Shown here in pieces: positions 5,486 through 18,346 of a DNA stretch of 64,000 nt; the stretch's first letter is position 1; every line of letters starts with the position of its first letter. Origin of the DNA: Escherichia phage vB_ESM-pEJ01. The position numbers were made by a program, and so were the translations under genes. The notes under the pieces were generated by a model, which worked only from the letters and a program-made list of their open reading frames with translations, had not been told where the DNA came from and searched no databases. The DNA lies in the sequence record OP114734.1; one strand, written 5' to 3'.

Positions 5486-6877
5486 TCAAATATAGTCTAC
5501 TCGATACCTCGCACGGGTAACACCCACATATAATAACTGCATTGCCAATTCAAAGTCAACATTGTCTGTACACATGCAAGGAGTATACAGGAACACGCGG
5601 TCTACGCTGATCCCTTGTGACTTATGAATGGTGCAAGCTGGTAATGCTTTTACATTCAAGAACATACGCTTCATCGTCCAGAATGAATCCCAATCTGGTT
5701 TAAATTTTGGATTCTCTTTCTTCATTTCGCGATATTGTCCGGCGACCGTATTCAGATAGATAGAGAAAATGTTCTTCTGACGTTGTTCTGTCAGAATGTT
5801 GATTTCTACTAAATCTGGTTTATCTGTAGTGATTCCGACTGCATCTAAACCTACTTTCTGATTTAGGATTTCTTTGTCTTCGTCATCATCGACGCTTTCC
5901 ACTTTCAGAGTATATCCTAAAACTGGTTGCGGATCTACCCCCGTGCAACGTAATGTAAATTCACGCGGGATGACCTCTTTAACTCGGATCATCTCACCAT
6001 TGTTAAAAATAACATTGGGAATCTTCTTCCCGCGTTCATCTCGCAGATATTCGATCAATGGTTCCTGAGTAACCAGAATTTCATCTACAATCACTGGTTC
6101 ATCGGTGTTATAAACGCGCTTACGTACAATTTCATTGAGTTTTTCGACGCTCTTGTTAGTGTAGGCCAGAATACGGTTTTCTAGAAGGTCTTCCGGCGTT
6201 TTAACGGTTTCGAAATAATGCTTCATAAACTCCGGCAGAGTTGAGCTATGGAATACACCCTCGTTGCCGCACTGCTTTTCGAATACCCATTTACCATTAC
6301 GGACAGCGGTCGCCACATCAATTATTGGCGCATTAGATCGTTTAATCTCTGTAAGTTCTACATTCTGAAACCTTTCATCGGTGAAGAAAGGAGAGATCGA
6401 CGTTGCACCGCTCGGATCAACTGGTCGTAACTGGTACAGATCACCCACGGCAATAATAACAATTCGACCGTTGATACTCTTCATGAGAATATCAAATAGT
6501 TTCTTATCGACCATACTCGCTTCATCAACAATGATGATCTGAACATCATCTAGCTTAGGAGTATCTTTTTGCTCAAATACTTGAGTATCTTCATAGTTGG
6601 TCGGGTTTAGTCGCAGTAGTGCATGTAAAGTAAATGCTTGACGACCTACCGCTTTACTCAAAACTTTTTTAGCCTGGTGGGTAGGCGTTGCCAAAACCAC
6701 ACCAGTTACACCACGACGGACCATTTCCTGAACAATGAATTTCATCATTGCGGTTTTACCAGTACCCGCCGCACCACGGACAGTTGTATGCTTCTTTTGT
6801 TCAATGCGTTTCATTAGAACATCAAAAGCATGTTTTTGCCCGTCTGTTAACATATCGAAAGTTAATACTCTGCTCAT
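5486..6877 (-). CDS. dda: Dda DNA helicase (SF1)
   Basis: Walker A GAAGTGKT; FTEIKRSNAPIIDVATAVRNGKW and C-terminal LLYVGVTRARYRV match remembered T4 Dda; GAGGA SD. Confidence 0.92.
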   Translation of the reverse strand: MSRVLTFDMLTDGQKHAFDVLMKRIEQKKHTTVRGAAGTGKTAMMKFIVQEMVRRGVTGVVLATPTHQAKKVLSKAVGRQAFTLHALLRLNPTNYEDTQVFEQKDTPKLDDVQIIIVDEASMVDKKLFDILMKSINGRIVIIAVGDLYQLRPVDPSGATSISPFFTDERFQNVELTEIKRSNAPIIDVATAVRNGKWVFEKQCGNEGVFHSSTLPEFMKHYFETVKTPEDLLENRILAYTNKSVEKLNEIVRKRVYNTDEPVIVDEILVTQEPLIEYLRDERGKKIPNVIFNNGEMIRVKEVIPREFTLRCTGVDPQPVLGYTLKVESVDDDEDKEILNQKVGLDAVGITTDKPDLVEINILTEQRQKNIFSIYLNTVAGQYREMKKENPKFKPDWDSFWTMKRMFLNVKALPACTIHKSQGISVDRVFLYTPCMCTDNVDFELAMQLLYVGVTRARYRVDYI

Positions 6878-7191
6878 TATCCTAAAATCCTCACCTTGCG
6901 AACACAGATAGTATTGAGTTCTCGCCGTACCCGTTCTTTTTCATATTCAGGAATTTTATATTCGATACCATCCCGAACAATTTCAGAAGACCGGATTATG
7001 CCAAATTTTCGTTTAGGTACAACCTTGTATTTCGGTTCACCCGCCAATAGACTCTCACAATAATCTATCTGATCACACATTGACGCTAACGCAGCATCAT
7101 GTGTTTCGCAAGTTAGGACGCGACCTTTCGCGTCCACTGAGTATTGAAAGAATCCGTCTTTATCACGATAACATACAGCAAATACATGCAT
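6877..7191 (-). CDS. hypothetical protein (104 aa)
   Basis: ORF track; start overlaps stop of next gene; no recognisable motif. Confidence 0.5.
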   Translation of the reverse strand: MHVFAVCYRDKDGFFQYSVDAKGRVLTCETHDAALASMCDQIDYCESLLAGEPKYKVVPKRKFGIIRSSEIVRDGIEYKIPEYEKERVRRELNTICVRKVRILG

Positions 7192-7946
7192 TATAAACCT
7201 ACCTTCGCTTTCATCAATTCAATCCACGACGCATCAATCGGAAGCCCGTATTTCACGCGTTCTTTTTGTGCTGGCGTTAAGTTCTCATACTTAGAAAGAG
7301 ATTCAATCAAAACGCTGGTATATTTTAGCACGACTTCGGTATTGTTTGCAATAGCCTTAAGTTTTTCTTCTTTCTTGTTGATTTCGCTAAGGGCTTGCTT
7401 GAGATCTGCAATTTTCTGATAACGTTCTTCCATACGGAAGAGAGTATTTTTAATCGCTCGCTCGGCTGCCTCTGCTTTCTCCGGTTCGTTGTGCTTTTTG
7501 TGGCGCTCGATTGCTAACTTCTTTTCTTCGATTGCCATTTCCTGATTTTTGATGCGATTCTCGTTAAGTTCGATCCACTCGATGTACTTCGCACGTAGGG
7601 CAATTTCATCATCAGAAAGTTTACCGTTAGTTCCTAGTTCCTGGATCTCTTTAAGAGATTCGATAGTGTGATTGCCACGGAAAGAATTGTATTTCAGTTT
7701 AACCGGAATTACACTGCCATCAACATATCCTAGATTGCAATCAATGCGCTCTAAGGAGAGTCCATCATCACCTTCACCGAACGCTTCACCGGAATAGGCG
7801 CAATGAGTCTGACGGTAAATGTTGCGCACAGTGACTAAGCTCATAGAGAAGTCTTTGTTGCGACGTGAAGCGCCAGCCATGATAGAGTTCAGACGGAAAA
7901 CAACCAGCGCCAATTCTTCGTTAGATTTAAAAGCAAACAGTTTCAT
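7191..7946 (-). CDS. hypothetical protein with Lys/Glu-rich coiled-coil C-terminal half
   Basis: ORF track 251 aa; AGGAG SD; N-terminal segment HCAYSGEAF...ERIDCNLGYVDGSVIPV weakly HNH-like (uncertain). Confidence 0.5.
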   Translation of the reverse strand: MKLFAFKSNEELALVVFRLNSIMAGASRRNKDFSMSLVTVRNIYRQTHCAYSGEAFGEGDDGLSLERIDCNLGYVDGSVIPVKLKYNSFRGNHTIESLKEIQELGTNGKLSDDEIALRAKYIEWIELNENRIKNQEMAIEEKKLAIERHKKHNEPEKAEAAERAIKNTLFRMEERYQKIADLKQALSEINKKEEKLKAIANNTEVVLKYTSVLIESLSKYENLTPAQKERVKYGLPIDASWIELMKAKVGL

Positions 7947-7975
7947 AATTGATTCTCCTTAGTTGGCATGTGTGT

Positions 7976-8004
7976 ATTATTGTCTATCTGGTTTGTGCTG
8001 TCAA
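7976..8004 (-). promoter_or_regulatory. sigma70-type early promoter (-35 TTGACA at rc 7999-8004)
   Basis: rc of tgtcaa 7999-8004; A/T-rich -10 candidate 17-18 nt downstream; 25 nt before AGGAG SD of gene starting 7946. Confidence 0.35.
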
Positions 8005-8007
8005 CAC

Positions 8008-8511
8008 TTAAATTAAAGAAAATTTGTAAATCTCTATCAGATCGCCATTACACGCGTAAACTTCCTCGATCTCATCAAGGATCATGGTCGTCCCTGTCTT
8101 GTATATGCACTCGCGCTCATCTGCCAACATAGCATACAAAGACAGTCGAGTAGTCGGATTGTCATACTCTTTAGACACCACTCGGTCAATAGCATGTTCG
8201 TAATAATTCATGCAAGGCTTGGTAGGTTTTATTGCAATAATCTTTCCTGTTGCATAAACATCGGTTGCAAAGTCCTCTGCTGTTGATTGCAGTGGCGTAA
8301 AGCTCATAGGACGCTCTACAACGAAAGAATCGCCTACAATTAAGGTATCCAGCTTACGGCCTTCTCTTTTGCTCACACCGCGATACAAGGCTTCATGATG
8401 CACTAACCGCTCAGTCTTTTCAATCAATCCATTAAGGATCGACATATCGATATTTTCTTTAGAGTTCATCACCTCATCAATGATGTTAAGTTCTTCTGGT
8501 GTAAATTGCAT
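8008..8511 (-). CDS. putative mono-ADP-ribosyltransferase (ModA/ModB-like)
   Basis: 167 aa with candidate R-S-E triad: LYRGVS, LQSTAEDF, ADERECIY; syntenic with T4 modA/modB region; start codon uncertain. Confidence 0.4.
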   Translation of the reverse strand: MQFTPEELNIIDEVMNSKENIDMSILNGLIEKTERLVHHEALYRGVSKREGRKLDTLIVGDSFVVERPMSFTPLQSTAEDFATDVYATGKIIAIKPTKPCMNYYEHAIDRVVSKEYDNPTTRLSLYAMLADERECIYKTGTTMILDEIEEVYACNGDLIEIYKFSLI

Positions 8512-8520
8512 AATAAAAAA

Positions 8521-8544
8521 GCCTCCAATCTTTCGACGGGAGGC
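8521..8544 (-). terminator. rho-independent terminator hairpin (gcctcc/gggaggc) followed by U-run on minus transcript
   Basis: rc gives gcctcccgtcgaaagattggaggc then UUUUUUAUUA (8511-8520); lies just 5' of the 8511 start codon. Confidence 0.45.
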
Positions 8545-8574
8545 ATAATAAAACCATGATAGAGTAGTGTCAAC
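8545..8574 (-). promoter_or_regulatory. sigma70-type promoter (-35 TTGACA rc 8569-8574; -10 TATTAT rc 8545-8550)
   Basis: Predicted start falls inside terminator hairpin 8521-8544. Confidence 0.35.
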
Positions 8575-8580
8575 TAATTT

Positions 8581-9105
8581 TTAGTAGCCTCGTTCTTGAC
8601 GGGCGAAGTTTTCAGCATTTTTCAGATAGTACAGAATAAAGAGTTCTTGAGCGTCAATACCCAGCGGGATCATCTTTGACAGAATGAAGTGGATCGCGTC
8701 CACAAATTCAAATTTCACTTCAAGCTGATCTTCCGGTGACAGTTCAGAGAATTTACGCGCTCGCGCTTCTCCGTGGTTCTTTTTCCACATTTTCCAGATT
8801 GCACTTGCATCTTTACCATTGGACATTCCACCCAGCGATGTGTAAAGCTCTCGTGTTTCGTCTGCGATAGCGTCATCCATCCGCTGCATCCAATCCAGCA
8901 TTTCACCGCAAGTCTCTAGCTTAGTTGGATTTGGGACCCAATCAAATTTTTCGGATAATGCAACCTGCAAACCAGTTTGCATTTCGAGCATCACCTGAAA
9001 CGGATCTTTACCTTCTGCAATAGCGTGATGATATGCGGCGATAGCCGCGTTAATATCTTTTTCGTTAACCAGACCAGCACAAGAATTAAATTCTGACATA
9101 TTCAC
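8581..9105 (-). CDS. 56: dCTP pyrophosphatase (dCTPase-dUTPase) gp56
   Basis: DETRELYTSLGGMS, LSPEDQLEVKFE, LYYLKNAENFARQERGY match remembered T4 gp56. Confidence 0.9.
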   Translation of the reverse strand: MNMSEFNSCAGLVNEKDINAAIAAYHHAIAEGKDPFQVMLEMQTGLQVALSEKFDWVPNPTKLETCGEMLDWMQRMDDAIADETRELYTSLGGMSNGKDASAIWKMWKKNHGEARARKFSELSPEDQLEVKFEFVDAIHFILSKMIPLGIDAQELFILYYLKNAENFARQERGY

Positions 9106-9113
9106 CTCATTAA

Positions 9114-10142
9114 TTAAAATTTACAATATTTCATAAACCGCATTTTAGCCATCAGACCTTGTACGGTGTTCTCTTTGATATATTCCATGATCTGGTCGCG
9201 TGTAGCGCCCTCGTCCTGAATCATGGCGTTGACGTCTTTAGAATGCCACGGGCAACGATCCCACAATACAATCTTTTCCCCTGCATTGATAAACTTTTCC
9301 AGTCGGTGCATTGTATCGGCAGACCGTGGTTCCGCATCAAGTACAAACACTCGCTGATCAGGGAAAGGAATTTCATCTAATCCCAAAGTACCGCCAGTAA
9401 TTGCACACCCGTTATCAATAAACAATGAATCGATCGGACCTTCTAAGAAATACACTGGCCTACTCGGATCGGCGCGTTCAAGACCATAGACCTTACTCGC
9501 TAACTCATGAGTTTTAATCGTCATATATTTGGTCTTTCCGTAATCCTTTCTCAATGCTCGCCCCTGAATGGATTCTATCTTGTTCTCGCGGTTAAAGATA
9601 GGAATCACTAAACGCGGTTCAGGTTGTGGATTCTTGAAAGTATCAGCCTTAATGTGATTTGCTACCTTTTGCCATTCTCTCGTGAAATACAGAAGATCCC
9701 ATTTATCGTGGGGAATGCAACGATCACTGACATACTTTATTATAGGATGATTAGCCGGAAGAGTATCTAACCTCTCGCAGAAAGGCAATGTTTGCACTTT
9801 CTTAATCTCCGGCTTTTCTACCTTTTTCAGTGGCTTGAACGTGGTGTTCTTGTGGTCGCCTTGTTCCTTCCGTCGTTCCATAAGCCATTCCCTGAATAGG
9901 TCCGGCTTATATTGTTTAAGAAATTCACCTAACGGCTGATTATAGTTACAGTTGAAGCAACCACAACGCAAACTATCTTTATAGGTATAGATACGGAATC
10001 GCGCTTGAGTATGATTTTTCTTTGAGTCACCGCAGATCGGACAACTACACACCAGCGTAAATGAGCTAGTATGCAACCGTTTAAAATTTCGTTCGCCGTA
10101 TATGGCTTTTTCCGCTATTTCATAATCTGCGTAGTAAATCAT
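9114..10142 (-). CDS. 61: DNA primase gp61
   Basis: 342 aa (same length as T4 gp61); N-terminal zinc-binding cysteines CSCPICGD...CGCFNC; position next to gene 56. Confidence 0.85.
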   Translation of the reverse strand: MIYYADYEIAEKAIYGERNFKRLHTSSFTLVCSCPICGDSKKNHTQARFRIYTYKDSLRCGCFNCNYNQPLGEFLKQYKPDLFREWLMERRKEQGDHKNTTFKPLKKVEKPEIKKVQTLPFCERLDTLPANHPIIKYVSDRCIPHDKWDLLYFTREWQKVANHIKADTFKNPQPEPRLVIPIFNRENKIESIQGRALRKDYGKTKYMTIKTHELASKVYGLERADPSRPVYFLEGPIDSLFIDNGCAITGGTLGLDEIPFPDQRVFVLDAEPRSADTMHRLEKFINAGEKIVLWDRCPWHSKDVNAMIQDEGATRDQIMEYIKENTVQGLMAKMRFMKYCKF

Positions 10143-10151
10143 AATAACCTC

Positions 10152-10355
10152 TTATAGCTCAAATTTCATGAAAGTTCCCACACTTTCATTTTCATTCTCT
10201 CCGTTTTCATCTAAGCCAAATTTGTAGACACTACCATCTGGCGATGTGTAAGAGAATACACGAAAACGGCCTACCGGATCAAGTTCTGTAAATTCATATT
10301 CTTTTCCGGCTTCAAAAAGTGAATATGTGCTTTTAAGACATTTCATCGTGATCAT
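10152..10355 (-). CDS. hypothetical protein (67 aa)
   Basis: ORF track; co-oriented; no motif. Confidence 0.45.
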   Translation of the reverse strand: MITMKCLKSTYSLFEAGKEYEFTELDPVGRFRVFSYTSPDGSVYKFGLDENGENENESVGTFMKFEL

Positions 10356-11766: not shown

Positions 11767-13179
11767 TTAGAAAGTCATGTTATTTGCTAGCTCGTCGAGT
11801 TTTTCTCGTTTCTCGGCTTGCTGTGCGCTTTGTGGTTTAACTTGTGCATTCTCCTGATCTGCGATCTGGTTTGGTACTTCATACCAACGCTGATTGCCTT
11901 TTTTCACACCAACGTTAAACCGTGAATAATAGTTCTTATCACCGTAACGAGACTTGATCTGCTTCATGAGTTGGACGCCCATTTTAGCCAGGTCTTCGGT
12001 TTCGATAACACCCAACATAAAGTCGGCAGTAGCCGGAAGACCTGCCGATTCAGCGGTATCACTCATGTTAAGGTCGGAAGCATCCCAACCCGCGCGGGTA
12101 GTCTGTGCCGCAGTCCAACCAACAACATCCCACTTAACAAAAAATCCTCGCAGTTCTTCCGCAATCGCCTTAACTAGTGTGTAACTATTTTCAGAGTATA
12201 CACGCAAGCGAGACGATGCGCAAATCCCAAGATAGTCAACAATCACAACATCAGGTTTAAACTGTTTCTTGAGTCGCAATTCATTCATTAACGCCTCAAA
12301 GTGATTGGAGTTCGCGCCACCAGTCGGATACTGCTTGATCATCAATTTTCCAACCGGACGATCTCCGATCTTCTTATTCTTAACACGCTTCATACGTGCG
12401 GAATATTCCGCAAAAGAAACATTACCATTATCCAATTCATCTAATGTAATGTCAAGCAAGTTTGCGTCAATACGTTTGGCTACGACATGCTCTGCCATCT
12501 CCATTGAGATATACAATACATCATAACCACATTCCATATAATCCGCAGCAAGAGAACACAGTCCAAGCGATTTGCCAACGTTTACACCAGCAAGCAACAC
12601 GTTTAGCGTTTTTCTTTCCGCCCCTCCTTTCGTGATTTTATTCAACATCGGCAGCTTAAATGGGATCTTATTCGCCTTAGTCTGATATAACAGGAATCGT
12701 TTTTCAAAGTCATTAAACCAGTCATGACCTACATCAGAATCAAACGTAATGGATAGTGCTTCCTGCATAATTTCAGGAATAGCGCCCTCACTAGGCAATT
12801 TCTTATTCTGTTTCTCTTTTGGTAGTTGTGCGTTCGCCTGAATCTCTAGCGCCCGTGACATTGCATTGTACATAGCACGGTCACGAATAAATTTTTCGGT
12901 TTCCTTCATTAACCAATCAAGGTCTTCCGGTGTATTCTCCAGCGAATCGAGAAGAGTTTTAGCCCCTTCATATGTTGTCTGATTGCCTCTCTCCTTGTCT
13001 AAAGCAATCTGTAATGCAGTTGGCGTAGGAATATTGGAATATTCGTCTACGTGCTTTTTAATCAGCTTATAAATCAGTTTTTCTTCGTCTTCGGTGAAGT
13101 AGTCCGCTTTAAGGTGAGGCCATACATTCGTAAAGAATGCGCCATTGTAAATCAACTGTGAAAAGATAGTTTTAATCAT
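11767..13179 (-). CDS. 41: replicative DNA helicase gp41 (DnaB-like)
   Basis: Near-colinear with remembered T4 gp41: LNVLLAGVNVGKSLGLCSLAADY, YISMEMAE, IKSRYGDKN. Confidence 0.93.
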   Translation of the reverse strand: MIKTIFSQLIYNGAFFTNVWPHLKADYFTEDEEKLIYKLIKKHVDEYSNIPTPTALQIALDKERGNQTTYEGAKTLLDSLENTPEDLDWLMKETEKFIRDRAMYNAMSRALEIQANAQLPKEKQNKKLPSEGAIPEIMQEALSITFDSDVGHDWFNDFEKRFLLYQTKANKIPFKLPMLNKITKGGAERKTLNVLLAGVNVGKSLGLCSLAADYMECGYDVLYISMEMAEHVVAKRIDANLLDITLDELDNGNVSFAEYSARMKRVKNKKIGDRPVGKLMIKQYPTGGANSNHFEALMNELRLKKQFKPDVVIVDYLGICASSRLRVYSENSYTLVKAIAEELRGFFVKWDVVGWTAAQTTRAGWDASDLNMSDTAESAGLPATADFMLGVIETEDLAKMGVQLMKQIKSRYGDKNYYSRFNVGVKKGNQRWYEVPNQIADQENAQVKPQSAQQAEKREKLDELANNMTF

Positions 13180-15667: not shown

Positions 15668-18346
15668 TTAAATGTCAAACAGGTCCGTAAGCGATGCCAC
15701 CTTTTCATATTGCAGCTTTGCAGCCGTGGTAATGTTCTCCAGTGGTTTGACGAAAGTCTTATTAAACAACAAAGGCCAGTCCAACCACTTCAACACCTCT
15801 GATTCAATTTCTGGAGGAATACGAGTACCAGACAACCAACCAAAACAGATTTCTCCAAACGGATTTCGATCTTTAAGCGGTACAATCATAACCTTCTCGC
15901 CTTCACGAATCGGATCTAGTCCGAATTTTCGAGCATTACGATTATAACACAATACACTCTTAACCGCATACGGACAACCCTTAATCGGATACCCGTTTGA
16001 ATCGCTGTATTTCTGTAGGTTGTTTGCAGATGATACCGCAGCAACATCAAGATAGTCAAGTTTTCTAAATTCTTGCTCAAAAATACCGTAGTATTCCTGC
16101 AATGACTCTTCACCTTCCTGCAACATACGGCGAATACATTCTTTCAGTGATTTCTGACATGCTTTAGGGGTGGAGCTACGTTGCGTTTCCAAGCCCATGA
16201 TTTTTAGCTTAGGTTCAGCAAAGCGCGTTCCTTCCATATCCCAAACATTAAGAGCATAACGCTTTTTGCCAGTCCAGAATCCACCGATACCCGCAGATTT
16301 CAACGGAGGACCAGCAATTGCCTCACGGTCCATAAACATCAAGTGCTCATAGTTGTTCATGTACTCGCATAACTCGCGATATCCCTTGTCGATAATAGGT
16401 TCCATTCGATGTTTACCGAAATTATCAAGGAAGTCAACAAGTTTTTCGGTATCGTCGAAACGATCTTCCCCGCCAACCTTATCAACAACATTGTTAACCA
16501 GCACATAAACGGAGTCAGTATCACAATAACGAACATATGCAAAATCGGTTGTTCCGCAAAGCTCGTTTAAGTATTCGTTAATCTTACGCTCAATCCACTG
16601 AATTGCAAGCTGACCGAACAGTGTGATCGCACTAGCGTTACGGAGATCATAAAAACGGAATTTAGGATTCCCCAACGCACCATAAAGTGAGTTGATCAAA
16701 ACTTTTCGAGAAAGCTGGTTTGTATTGCACAAGATCGACTCGTCTTTACATTCTTCCAGCAATTTCTCTAAGGTATCTTTGCTTAATTCAGAAAGCATCG
16801 ATTTAAACGCTTCATCGAAGTCGTGACGCACTTCAACGCTATAGCTAATGGTTCCCCCATAAACATGATTTTCATCGTGTAGAATCGCTTTACATAGTTC
16901 AGCATTGCGATCACATGCCAACATCATGTTTTTGTACTGCTTACGCTGATCGAATACCTTTTTAATCTCAATCGGTACGATACCATGAATATCTTTTCTA
17001 TACATCCATCCGTTAGGCGAGCAAGAATACTCATCACTCGGACGTGGTGCAGTTTTATTGATATACTCGTGCATCGGTGCAGCATCAAAAGATCCAGCGA
17101 TTGTTTCAGGAGAAATATTAACCTGTCGAATAATAGATGGGTACAGACTTGTTAAGTCAAAGCTCATCATCCAACGGTAAGCATTTGGCACAGGTTCTTT
17201 TACAAATGCGCCTGGATACGTCTGCTTAGGCTGTATCTTATTTTCCGGTACTACTTTACCCTCAGCTTTCAGAGATCCGAAGATAATAGCATCCCATACT
17301 TTCATCGGGTTATAAACATGGTTAAATTTAATCTTTGCATAGAAACATAGACTATACACAAGATCGATAAATCCACGCTTTTTATCAATCGCCAGCACAC
17401 GATCAACGTCGCCGATGTTATAATCGATGTAAAGTTGATGGTTGTCATCACGCAATTTCTTTAACGGACCATCATAATCAACCTTACCGATTCCTGTCTC
17501 ATATTCAGCAACATAATCTAACGCATATGTTGGTTGAGTCGTAAAGCTAAATTTCTTGTACAGGTCAATATAATCAAGGCTTTCGATCCCCATGATCGTA
17601 AATGCTTCACGCTCGTTGCCAAAATCATCCTGTGAGATTCTGGATTTAATCTTACCGCACGGGCTTAGACGGTTAGCGGTTCTACTTCCGAACTTATTAC
17701 TGATACGTTTAATGATATATGGAATATCGAATGTTTCTGTGTTCCAGCCAGTGAAACCAACGGGTCGGTTTTCCTCAAAGAATCGGATGTATTCTAACAG
17801 CAATTCATCTTCTGTGTCATAGACGTTATAAACAACGCGCTCTACAATATCAGGTCGAAGAATAGACTTGCTTGCTTCCCAGATTTCACCGTTTTTTCCT
17901 TTCAAATCAAATACAAAGAAACGATCATGTACGGAATCATAATGCGTAATTGCATCGATAGGATATTTCGCTTCTTCTGGTTTAGGAAATTCTGGGGCAG
18001 TGACCTCAATATCAACCCATGCTACACGGATTTTATTTCGGTCATATCGAATCTCGCCTTTATACGTATCAGACAGATAGGAGATGATAAAATCATCCAT
18101 CCCTAGTGCCTCCTGCCCCATTTCTCCCATCTTTTTACGCCATTTGTTGGCCTCGTTCATAGATGGGAATTTTTTAGCAATGCAAGGCTTGCCATAGATA
18201 TCTTTATAATTCGTAACCATACCAGGCGCGGCATGATGAAATAATGTTGGCGTATATTCAACGTAACGCTCTTGTTCTTGTCCAGCATCATCAATATAAC
18301 GCTCGTAGATCTTATCACCTACTCGCTCACATGACAGAAAATACAT
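15668..18346 (-). CDS. 43: DNA polymerase gp43 (family B)
   Basis: Colinear with remembered T4 gp43 (YGKPC, SFDLTSLYPSIIRQVNISPET, YCDTDS); start set to ATG at 18344-18346 with AAGGAG SD (track starts at upstream GTG 18376). Confidence 0.95.
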   Translation of the reverse strand: MYFLSCERVGDKIYERYIDDAGQEQERYVEYTPTLFHHAAPGMVTNYKDIYGKPCIAKKFPSMNEANKWRKKMGEMGQEALGMDDFIISYLSDTYKGEIRYDRNKIRVAWVDIEVTAPEFPKPEEAKYPIDAITHYDSVHDRFFVFDLKGKNGEIWEASKSILRPDIVERVVYNVYDTEDELLLEYIRFFEENRPVGFTGWNTETFDIPYIIKRISNKFGSRTANRLSPCGKIKSRISQDDFGNEREAFTIMGIESLDYIDLYKKFSFTTQPTYALDYVAEYETGIGKVDYDGPLKKLRDDNHQLYIDYNIGDVDRVLAIDKKRGFIDLVYSLCFYAKIKFNHVYNPMKVWDAIIFGSLKAEGKVVPENKIQPKQTYPGAFVKEPVPNAYRWMMSFDLTSLYPSIIRQVNISPETIAGSFDAAPMHEYINKTAPRPSDEYSCSPNGWMYRKDIHGIVPIEIKKVFDQRKQYKNMMLACDRNAELCKAILHDENHVYGGTISYSVEVRHDFDEAFKSMLSELSKDTLEKLLEECKDESILCNTNQLSRKVLINSLYGALGNPKFRFYDLRNASAITLFGQLAIQWIERKINEYLNELCGTTDFAYVRYCDTDSVYVLVNNVVDKVGGEDRFDDTEKLVDFLDNFGKHRMEPIIDKGYRELCEYMNNYEHLMFMDREAIAGPPLKSAGIGGFWTGKKRYALNVWDMEGTRFAEPKLKIMGLETQRSSTPKACQKSLKECIRRMLQEGEESLQEYYGIFEQEFRKLDYLDVAAVSSANNLQKYSDSNGYPIKGCPYAVKSVLCYNRNARKFGLDPIREGEKVMIVPLKDRNPFGEICFGWLSGTRIPPEIESEVLKWLDWPLLFNKTFVKPLENITTAAKLQYEKVASLTDLFDI

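Follow-up and report, generated by a model that had tools for sequence, protein, structure and literature searches.

The closest characterized relatives of the gene considered here are ModA and ModB of phage T4, which are described as arginine-specific ADP-ribosyltransferases (ARTs) of the R-S-EXE type, the R73A substitution in ModB abolishing its catalytic activity (PMC10468400). The targets of the T4 Mod proteins have been reviewed (PMC3014915), and the T4 literature states that what sets ModA and ModB apart in their targets and in RNAylation is not understood (PMC10468400). Here we examine a minus-strand gene, which we call mod, in a 64,000-nucleotide stretch (the window) of Escherichia phage vB_ESM-pEJ01 (OP114734.1), identified by its sequence as an RB49-like Krischvirus. 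Its 167-residue product had been tentatively singled out as a ModA/ModB-like ART in an initial annotation made from the sequence alone, and that reading is upheld by homology profiles, by conservation of the R-S-ExE residues, and by a predicted ART fold. Taking these together, we consider the product very probably to be a small, single-domain, cytoplasmic mono-ADP-ribosyltransferase of the phage Mod family (PF26816, PHROG 832), belonging to the R-S-E clade.

The assignment as such is not new, as the same protein already figures as a ModB ADP-ribosylase in RB49 and in dozens of Krischvirus genomes. Indeed, the Mod protein is 100% identical to RB49p014 of RB49 (NP_891585.1), annotated “modB, RNA polymerase ADP-ribosylase,” and a protein at least 99% identical is present in 56 phage records. 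The 3.2-kb region around mod shows 98.5 to 98.9% identity to Krischvirus genomes, including FL15, kaaroe, RB49, and GEC-3S. GenBank labels for the identical or near-identical Krischvirus protein vary among ModB, modA, “ModA or ModB,” “ADP ribosylate ribosomal protein,” and hypothetical protein. The existing labels derive solely from annotation transfer. Our result confirms this routine annotation, namely that the host-takeover genes of RB49-type coliphages include a single Mod-family ADP-ribosyltransferase, and a T4 specialist will find nothing in it surprising.

The family relationship is supported by several independent searches. The protein matches the PHROG profile phrog_832, “RNA polymerase ADP-ribosylase” (E = 1e-20), and BLASTP aligns its residues 2 to 113 with T4 ModB (33% identity; E = 8e-11) and residues 3 to 155 with T4 ModA (23% identity over 159 amino acids; E = 2e-6). 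A profile-profile comparison of the HHpred type, which the initial annotation had named as one way to check its proposal, bears it out over the full length against both T4 groups: with hhalign, the clade of the Mod protein matches an alignment of ModB/JS98-type sequences with a probability of 99.7% (E = 2.9e-25; 166 columns) and the ModA-clade alignment with 98.6% (E = 1e-15; 162 columns). Significant full-length similarity to both T4 proteins places it in the Mod family. Queried with the Mod protein alone, a word-indexed search for homologues returned only 3 proteins, and the wider family was gathered with an alignment query and exhaustive HMMER searches; the family search recovers the cluster containing the Mod protein at an E value of 1.3e-64. 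In the exhaustive search, a 13-sequence profile retrieved 222 cluster representatives (E ≤ 0.001), which include both small phage proteins and ART modules embedded in proteins of 2,000 to 7,000 amino acids. Further, precomputed annotations assign PF26816 (Mod_ADP_RT) to homologues that are 99%, 74%, and 63% identical to the Mod protein (P0001 to P0003). More distantly, the family profile reaches solved ARTs weakly and at the exact motif positions, namely, the Vis toxin (E = 0.0022) and XopAI (E = 0.01); a single-sequence search of PDB sequences with the Mod protein gave no match, such that the solved ARTs are reached by family profiles only.

All three elements that define the R-S-E clade are present and in order, with the arginine on the first strand, an S-x-S/T on the second, and a (Q/E)-x-E before the fifth. 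In a 51-sequence alignment of small family members, there is no variation at G45, E132, or E134 and conservation of 90% or more at R44, S70, F71, A78, and F81. The named motifs are more than chance resemblances, since residues of each are either invariant (G45, E132, and E134) or conserved at that level (R44, S70, and F71) across the 51 sequences. The initial annotation had proposed a YRG, an “STx,” and an ExE-like DERE as candidate triad elements. Its YRG (Y43-R44-G45) and the ExE within D131-E132-R133-E134 stand, both being conserved in the family, while its literal “STx” does not: the serine motif is S70-F71-T72, which aligns with S99-F-T of ModB, S96-A-S of ModA, and the S-T-S of Vis. The sole literal “ST” in the right region, S76-T77, was considered as the serine motif and rejected, as it sits in the helix after the strand and is nonhomologous. 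In XopAI, Vis, and Lmo0066, the E-x-E occupies the alignment columns of E132 and E134. Among the family-profile alignments, that with Vis spans the YRG, S-T-S, and E-x-E, and that with XopAI covers the ExE strand, “EQEVLFPPGT.” ModA and ModB residues are numbered by direct count along the T4 sequences, the R73A result being that of PMC10468400.

To our knowledge, no structure of ModA or ModB has been deposited, and a fold comparison was therefore needed. An AlphaFold2 model built from a 13-sequence alignment has a mean predicted local distance difference test score of 90.7 and a predicted TM-score of 0.84, with no low-confidence segment, and on this basis a C3/VIP2/Vis-type ART fold is confidently predicted for the Mod protein. 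The predicted fold is that of the R-S-E clade, a split β-sandwich with an NAD cleft. In the model, strand 42-45 holds R44, strand 69-72 holds S70-T72, and strand 135-137 directly follows the ExE, which is the canonical placement. In a Foldseek search of the PDB, the best 50 matches are all ART toxins (top E = 2.6e-7); against BFVD, the model matches predicted Mod proteins of other phages with TM-scores of 0.85 to 0.93 and Alt- and VIP2-type phage ARTs more weakly. Absence of an ART fold from the predicted structure, which the initial annotation had named as the outcome that would count against it, is thus not what is seen.

The gene also bears the marks of selection. Compared with its counterpart in phage MIZ2, mod shows 12 synonymous and 0 nonsynonymous differences; compared with two diverged metagenomic alleles (74% and 63% amino acid identity), the ratio of nonsynonymous to synonymous substitution rates (dN/dS) is about 0.07 and 0.12, respectively, with dS saturated, and the catalytic residues are all retained in both. 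The gene is thus under purifying selection. The open reading frame (ORF) is real and intact, running from an ATG to a stop codon at 8008-8010 and having its own Shine-Dalgarno sequence and promoter. The open frame, 8011-8580, offers no in-frame start codon further upstream. An upstream extension that would restore a ModA/ModB-like N terminus was considered and rejected, the stretch being without an in-frame start and consisting of the promoter and hairpin described below.

Where the Mod protein belongs within the family is a separate matter. In a neighbor-joining tree of 34 sequences (BLOSUM62 distances; 100 bootstraps), it falls in a clade of short proteins (161 to 176 amino acids) with 100% bootstrap support, apart from the T4 ModA and T4 ModB clades; the deep nodes have 17% support. 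The ModA clade consists of T4 ModA and two further sequences (P0005 and P0009), with the Mod protein outside it, and it groups with T4 ModB no more than with T4 ModA. Nor does it have the length and architecture of the ModB group (about 207 amino acids, an N-terminal extension, and an insert before Arg161). The description “ModA/ModB-like” accordingly holds as a statement of family homology, given the full-length hhalign matches to both clades, and fails in the tree as a specific grouping with either. For its short-clade relatives P0018 and P0029, the nearest isolates are Krischviruses at 40 to 47% identity, and Krischvirus records have one matching place for Mod, as against two in T4-type genomes. 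As the short-form clade is separate and is neither ModA nor ModB, the “modB” label and the target assignment that comes with it are unsupported, and the name is an over-assignment for the Krischvirus gene.

Several observations weigh against the reading of the protein as a Mod-family ART acting on the T4 targets. Literature searches gave no experimental paper on any Krischvirus Mod protein or its clade. The placement outside both T4 clades means that the targets are extrapolated. The protein lacks about 30 N-terminal residues of ModA and ModB as well as an insert of 8 to 12 residues before R122, and the missing N terminus or insert could matter for target recognition. Lastly, it has no Mod-model match in local Pfam or NCBIfam libraries, which apparently contain no usable Mod model: the local Pfam scan matched it to DUF5507 alone, below threshold (E = 0.13), and the 51 family members put through the scan likewise drew no Mod family. 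Individual members among these 51 matched DRAT (10), ADPrib_exo_Tox (2), and ART (2). This silence carries no weight, however, because T4 ModA and ModB themselves are also unmatched there.

Within the ART reading, the targets could follow either T4 paralogue. A ModA-like role, in which the enzyme ADP-ribosylates Arg265 of both RNA polymerase α subunits and damps UP-element-dependent early and host promoters, is possible, if on the unlikely side. The alignment with ModA is nearly full length and includes the ExE region, the gene lies directly beside srd as T4 modA does, and RB49 has early promoters with A-rich UP-like regions and a diverged alt (PMC1524935); however, the identity to ModA is only 23%, the protein lies outside the ModA clade, and the target role would be by analogy. 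We regard true functional orthology with T4 ModB as doubtful; such an orthologue would ADP-ribosylate and RNAylate S1, L2, EF-Tu, and trigger factor through NAD+ or NAD-capped RNA. The RB49 annotation “modB” speaks for such orthology, as do the N-terminal two-thirds, which are nearer ModB (33%; E = 8e-11) than ModA, and the hhalign score, which is higher against the ModB-type clade than against the ModA clade. Yet the BLASTP match to ModB ends at residue 113, that to ModA reaching 155, the protein is 40 amino acids shorter, and it stands in the separate short-form clade and not within that of ModB, although the deep branching has the low support noted above. The GenBank labels are moreover inconsistent, and the determinants of RNAylation are not understood even within T4 (PMC10468400).

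It is improbable that the ART fold serves some other function here, such as simple NAD+ glycohydrolase activity, ADP-ribosylation of nucleic acids, or antidefense modification of a host immunity protein. Phage ARTs are functionally diverse, AcrIF11 being an example (PMC12421852), and fast-evolving (PMC9503650), and a 74%-identical allele within a 95 to 98%-identical background (see below) suggests an exchangeable adaptive module. Against this, no characterized protein is closer than ModA and ModB, transfer to protein arginine is what the ExE motif and the C3/VIP2-type fold suggest, and positive selection is not indicated by a dN/dS as low as 0.07 to 0.12. That the protein is a pseudo-enzyme, a remnant devoid of catalysis, or that the ORF arose by chance might be imagined from the shortness of the protein relative to ModA and ModB and from its lack of a match in the local Pfam and NCBIfam libraries; we give this next to no credence, in light of the full set of catalytic residues, the strong purifying selection, the promoter and Shine-Dalgarno sequence of its own, the confident fold prediction, and the near-identical protein in the 56 phage records.

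Returning to the reading of mod as a Mod-family enzyme, we propose that it is most likely, by analogy with T4, an early, NAD+-dependent, arginine-specific mono-ART acting on host transcription and/or translation proteins. Working from the predicted fold, the motifs, the homology, the selection, and the promoter, we infer the activity, arginine specificity, and targets as follows. Host RNA polymerase would transcribe mod within the first minutes of infection, and the enzyme would then bind NAD+, release nicotinamide, and modify host proteins with ADP-ribose on their arginine side chains. The E-x-E is the established signature of arginine specificity in R-S-E ARTs. If T4 is a guide, the targets would be the RNA polymerase α subunit (R265) and/or S1, EF-Tu, and trigger factor, and their modification would help redirect host gene expression to the phage. 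A search of six-frame segments with the family profile found no second Mod paralogue in the window; since mod is the only Mod-family gene both there and in Krischvirus genomes, its product may cover the roles divided between ModA and ModB in T4.

A further thought, which we hold to be rather unlikely, is that the short-form Krischvirus Mod proteins (161 to 176 amino acids) are a third, functionally distinct Mod lineage with its own target set, traded as a promoter-flanked cassette. If true, its targets would possibly comprise RNA polymerase together with the ribosome, possibly with RNAylation, or a host defense protein. As a minimal enzyme of 167 amino acids, Mod could in any event be a convenient model for the determinants of target choice and of RNAylation in ModA versus ModB.

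The mod gene behaves as an exchangeable cassette, the exchange being of individual early genes, with the promoter-bearing intergenic regions on either side conserved. On the metagenomic contig L004 (ENA ERZ27254725 k141_36743), gene 56, both intergenic regions, and srd are 95 to 98% identical to the window, the mod-srd intergenic region being 98.4% identical; the mod ORF between them has the same length and borders but only 70% nucleotide and 74% amino acid identity. In MIZ2, mod is 97.6% identical and gene 56 only 72%. Positive selection behind the diverged L004 allele was considered and rejected; given a dN/dS of about 0.07 with saturated dS, the allele is instead old and was acquired by recombination. 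For RB49 and phi1, modular shuffling has been described between conserved intergenic elements that carry promoters and are termed PeSLs (PMC2839356), and the mod locus offers a clean example of such early-gene cassette exchange.

The intergenic element upstream of mod (8512-8580, minus strand) combines a putative σ70-type early promoter with a terminator-like stem-loop (Table 1). The composite pattern is unique in the window, where 0 occurrences are expected by chance, and the promoter is conserved in MIZ2, L004, and a more distant contig (L005). Directly after it comes the hairpin, with a GNRA loop and a T-run, whose 3' arm contains the mod Shine-Dalgarno sequence. The hairpin is the main element of the RNA fold predicted for positions 8500-8585 (86 nucleotides; -17.1 kcal/mol; z = -2.28), and the 45 nucleotides downstream of the -10 element fold with -15.0 kcal/mol. 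The promoter-hairpin element is kept in MIZ2 and L004, and in L005 both arms have changed in a compensatory manner (GCCCCC...GGGGGC), such that the stem is maintained, there with GAGA as its loop. A transcript starting 5 to 9 nucleotides past the -10 element would have its first nucleotide where the 5' arm of the hairpin ends or further on; such a mod transcript would be without the hairpin, leaving the Shine-Dalgarno sequence free, whereas in transcripts that come through from gene 56 the hairpin would fold, with termination or an occluded Shine-Dalgarno sequence as the result. By this logic, mod expression would depend on its own early promoter. A second early-type promoter, beginning 4 nucleotides past the mod stop, is predicted to drive srd and to mark the downstream border of the cassette, such that mod and srd would each have an early promoter of their own.

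In composition, the element agrees with the published definition of a PeSL, there being a σ70 promoter, a stable stem-loop, a Shine-Dalgarno sequence, and a start codon, in a composite that flanks exchangeable ORFs (PMC2839356). In layout it departs from it: published PeSLs have the stem-loop upstream of the promoter (PMC4122927), whereas here the stem, GCCTCC/GGAGGC, lies downstream of the -10 element, between promoter and ATG. Across the window, the minus strand has 40 sites of the form TTGAC(A/T)-N16-18-TAnnnT (e.g., 15678-15651, 4032-4005, 20433-20405, 14367-14338, and 29492-29465). Several other early promoters, including those at 15678, 4032, 20433, and 14367, directly precede strong hairpins (-13 to -21.5 kcal/mol), as the promoter of mod does.

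Table 1. Features of the mod locus and its surroundings, in window coordinates
Feature	Coordinates	Strand	Remarks
mod coding sequence, 167-aa Mod-family ADP-ribosyltransferase (very probable)	8008..8511	-	100% identical to RB49 RB49p014 “modB”
Y43-R44-G45, “R” of R-S-ExE, predicted NAD-binding Arg on β1	8377..8385	-	codons TAT CGC GGT; = ModB R73, ModA R72
S70-F71-T72, S-x-S/T (STS-equivalent), second strand	8296..8304	-	codons AGC TTT ACG
E132-R133-E134, predicted catalytic ExE	8110..8118	-	codons GAG CGC GAG; = ModA E163-Q-E165, ModB E171-Q-E173
Putative σ70-type early promoter of mod: TTGACA (8573-8568), 17-nt spacer, TATTAT (8550-8545)	8545..8573	-	11/12 consensus
Terminator-like stem-loop GCCTCC-C-GTC-GAAA-GAT-T-GGAGGC (8544-8521) then TTTTTTATT (8520-8512)	8512..8544	-	RNA fold
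mod Shine-Dalgarno GGAGG	8526-8522	-	10 nt between its end and ATG
Second early-type promoter TTGACA, 17-nt spacer, AATAAT	7976..8004	-	11/12 consensus; begins 4 nt past mod stop
Srd	7191-7946	-	phrog_1400, E 3e-72
Y01A/Dda.1-like protein of T4 type	6877-7191	-	neighbor
Dda-type helicase	5486-6877	-	AAA_30 + Dda SH3 domain
Gene 56, gp56-type dCTP/dUTP pyrophosphatase	8581-9105	-	neighbor
gp61 primase	9114-10142	-	neighbor
470-aa ORF	11767-13179	-	counterpart of RB49 gene annotated gp41 helicase

The gene order in the window is dda - Y01A/dda.1 - srd - mod - 56 - 61, and that in T4 is dda - dda.1 - srd - modA - modB ... 56. The synteny with the T4 modA/modB region that the initial annotation had remarked on is thus confirmed, with mod lying between srd and gene 56, where T4 has modA and modB, and its place in the dda-srd-mod region together with the consensus σ70 promoter directly upstream is that of an early gene, as is expected of the Mod family. 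As to gene 56, the mechanically called ORF starts with GTG and has 174 codons, and the RB49 start lies two codons downstream (172 amino acids; 519-nucleotide coding sequence), a small ambiguity as to the start codon. Its 3' end (8581-8664) retains 77 to 91% DNA identity over about 54 to 165 nucleotides in otherwise unalignable Klebsiella T4-like phages, an unusual nucleotide conservation that could be that of a homing-endonuclease target or a recombination site, since in T4 SegF is encoded beside gene 56. In ECD7, KFS-EC, ELT3, vB_Eco_SAP, and JSE, the match to window positions 7000-10200 is broken into 2 to 3 pieces, with an HNH or other homing endonuclease annotated inside; positions 7000-10200 of the window are free of the homing-endonuclease insertion of these Krischvirus relatives.

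Comparison with the solved R-S-E ART toxins, namely, VIP2 (1qs1), Vis (4xzj), Certhrax (4fxq), CPILE-a (5gtt), the C3 exoenzymes, and the Tre1-type (6drh), shows a shared motif order of aromatic-R, S-x-S/T, and E-x-E at a sequence identity to the Mod protein of only 8 to 21%. Two helices (103-113 and 119-132) make up the stretch from strand 100-102 to the ExE in the Mod model. Unlike these toxins, the Mod protein has no secretion or translocation domain and would be made inside the infected cell.

The resemblance to the T4 proteins is closer. T4 ModB (UniProt P39423; NAD--protein ADP-ribosyltransferase, RNAylating) belongs to the same family (PF26816/phrog_832), is likewise encoded by an early gene between srd and gene 56, and aligns its R73, S99, and E171/E173 with R44, S70, and E132/E134 of Mod. 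It differs in having 207 amino acids against 167, the Mod protein being without the first ~30 residues and a 12-residue insert before R122 (R161 in ModB), and in being less acidic (pI 5.3 and charge -8, against pI 4.7 and charge -11). T4 ModA (UniProt P39421; RNA polymerase α-subunit Arg265 ADP-ribosyltransferase), also of the same family, aligns its R72, S96, and E163/E165 with the same four residues and its N128-F129 with N102-Y103; it has 200 amino acids, with an N-terminal extension that Mod lacks, and stands in a separate clade. Like T4 modA, mod adjoins srd, and where T4 has two Mod genes, the Krischviruses have a single one.
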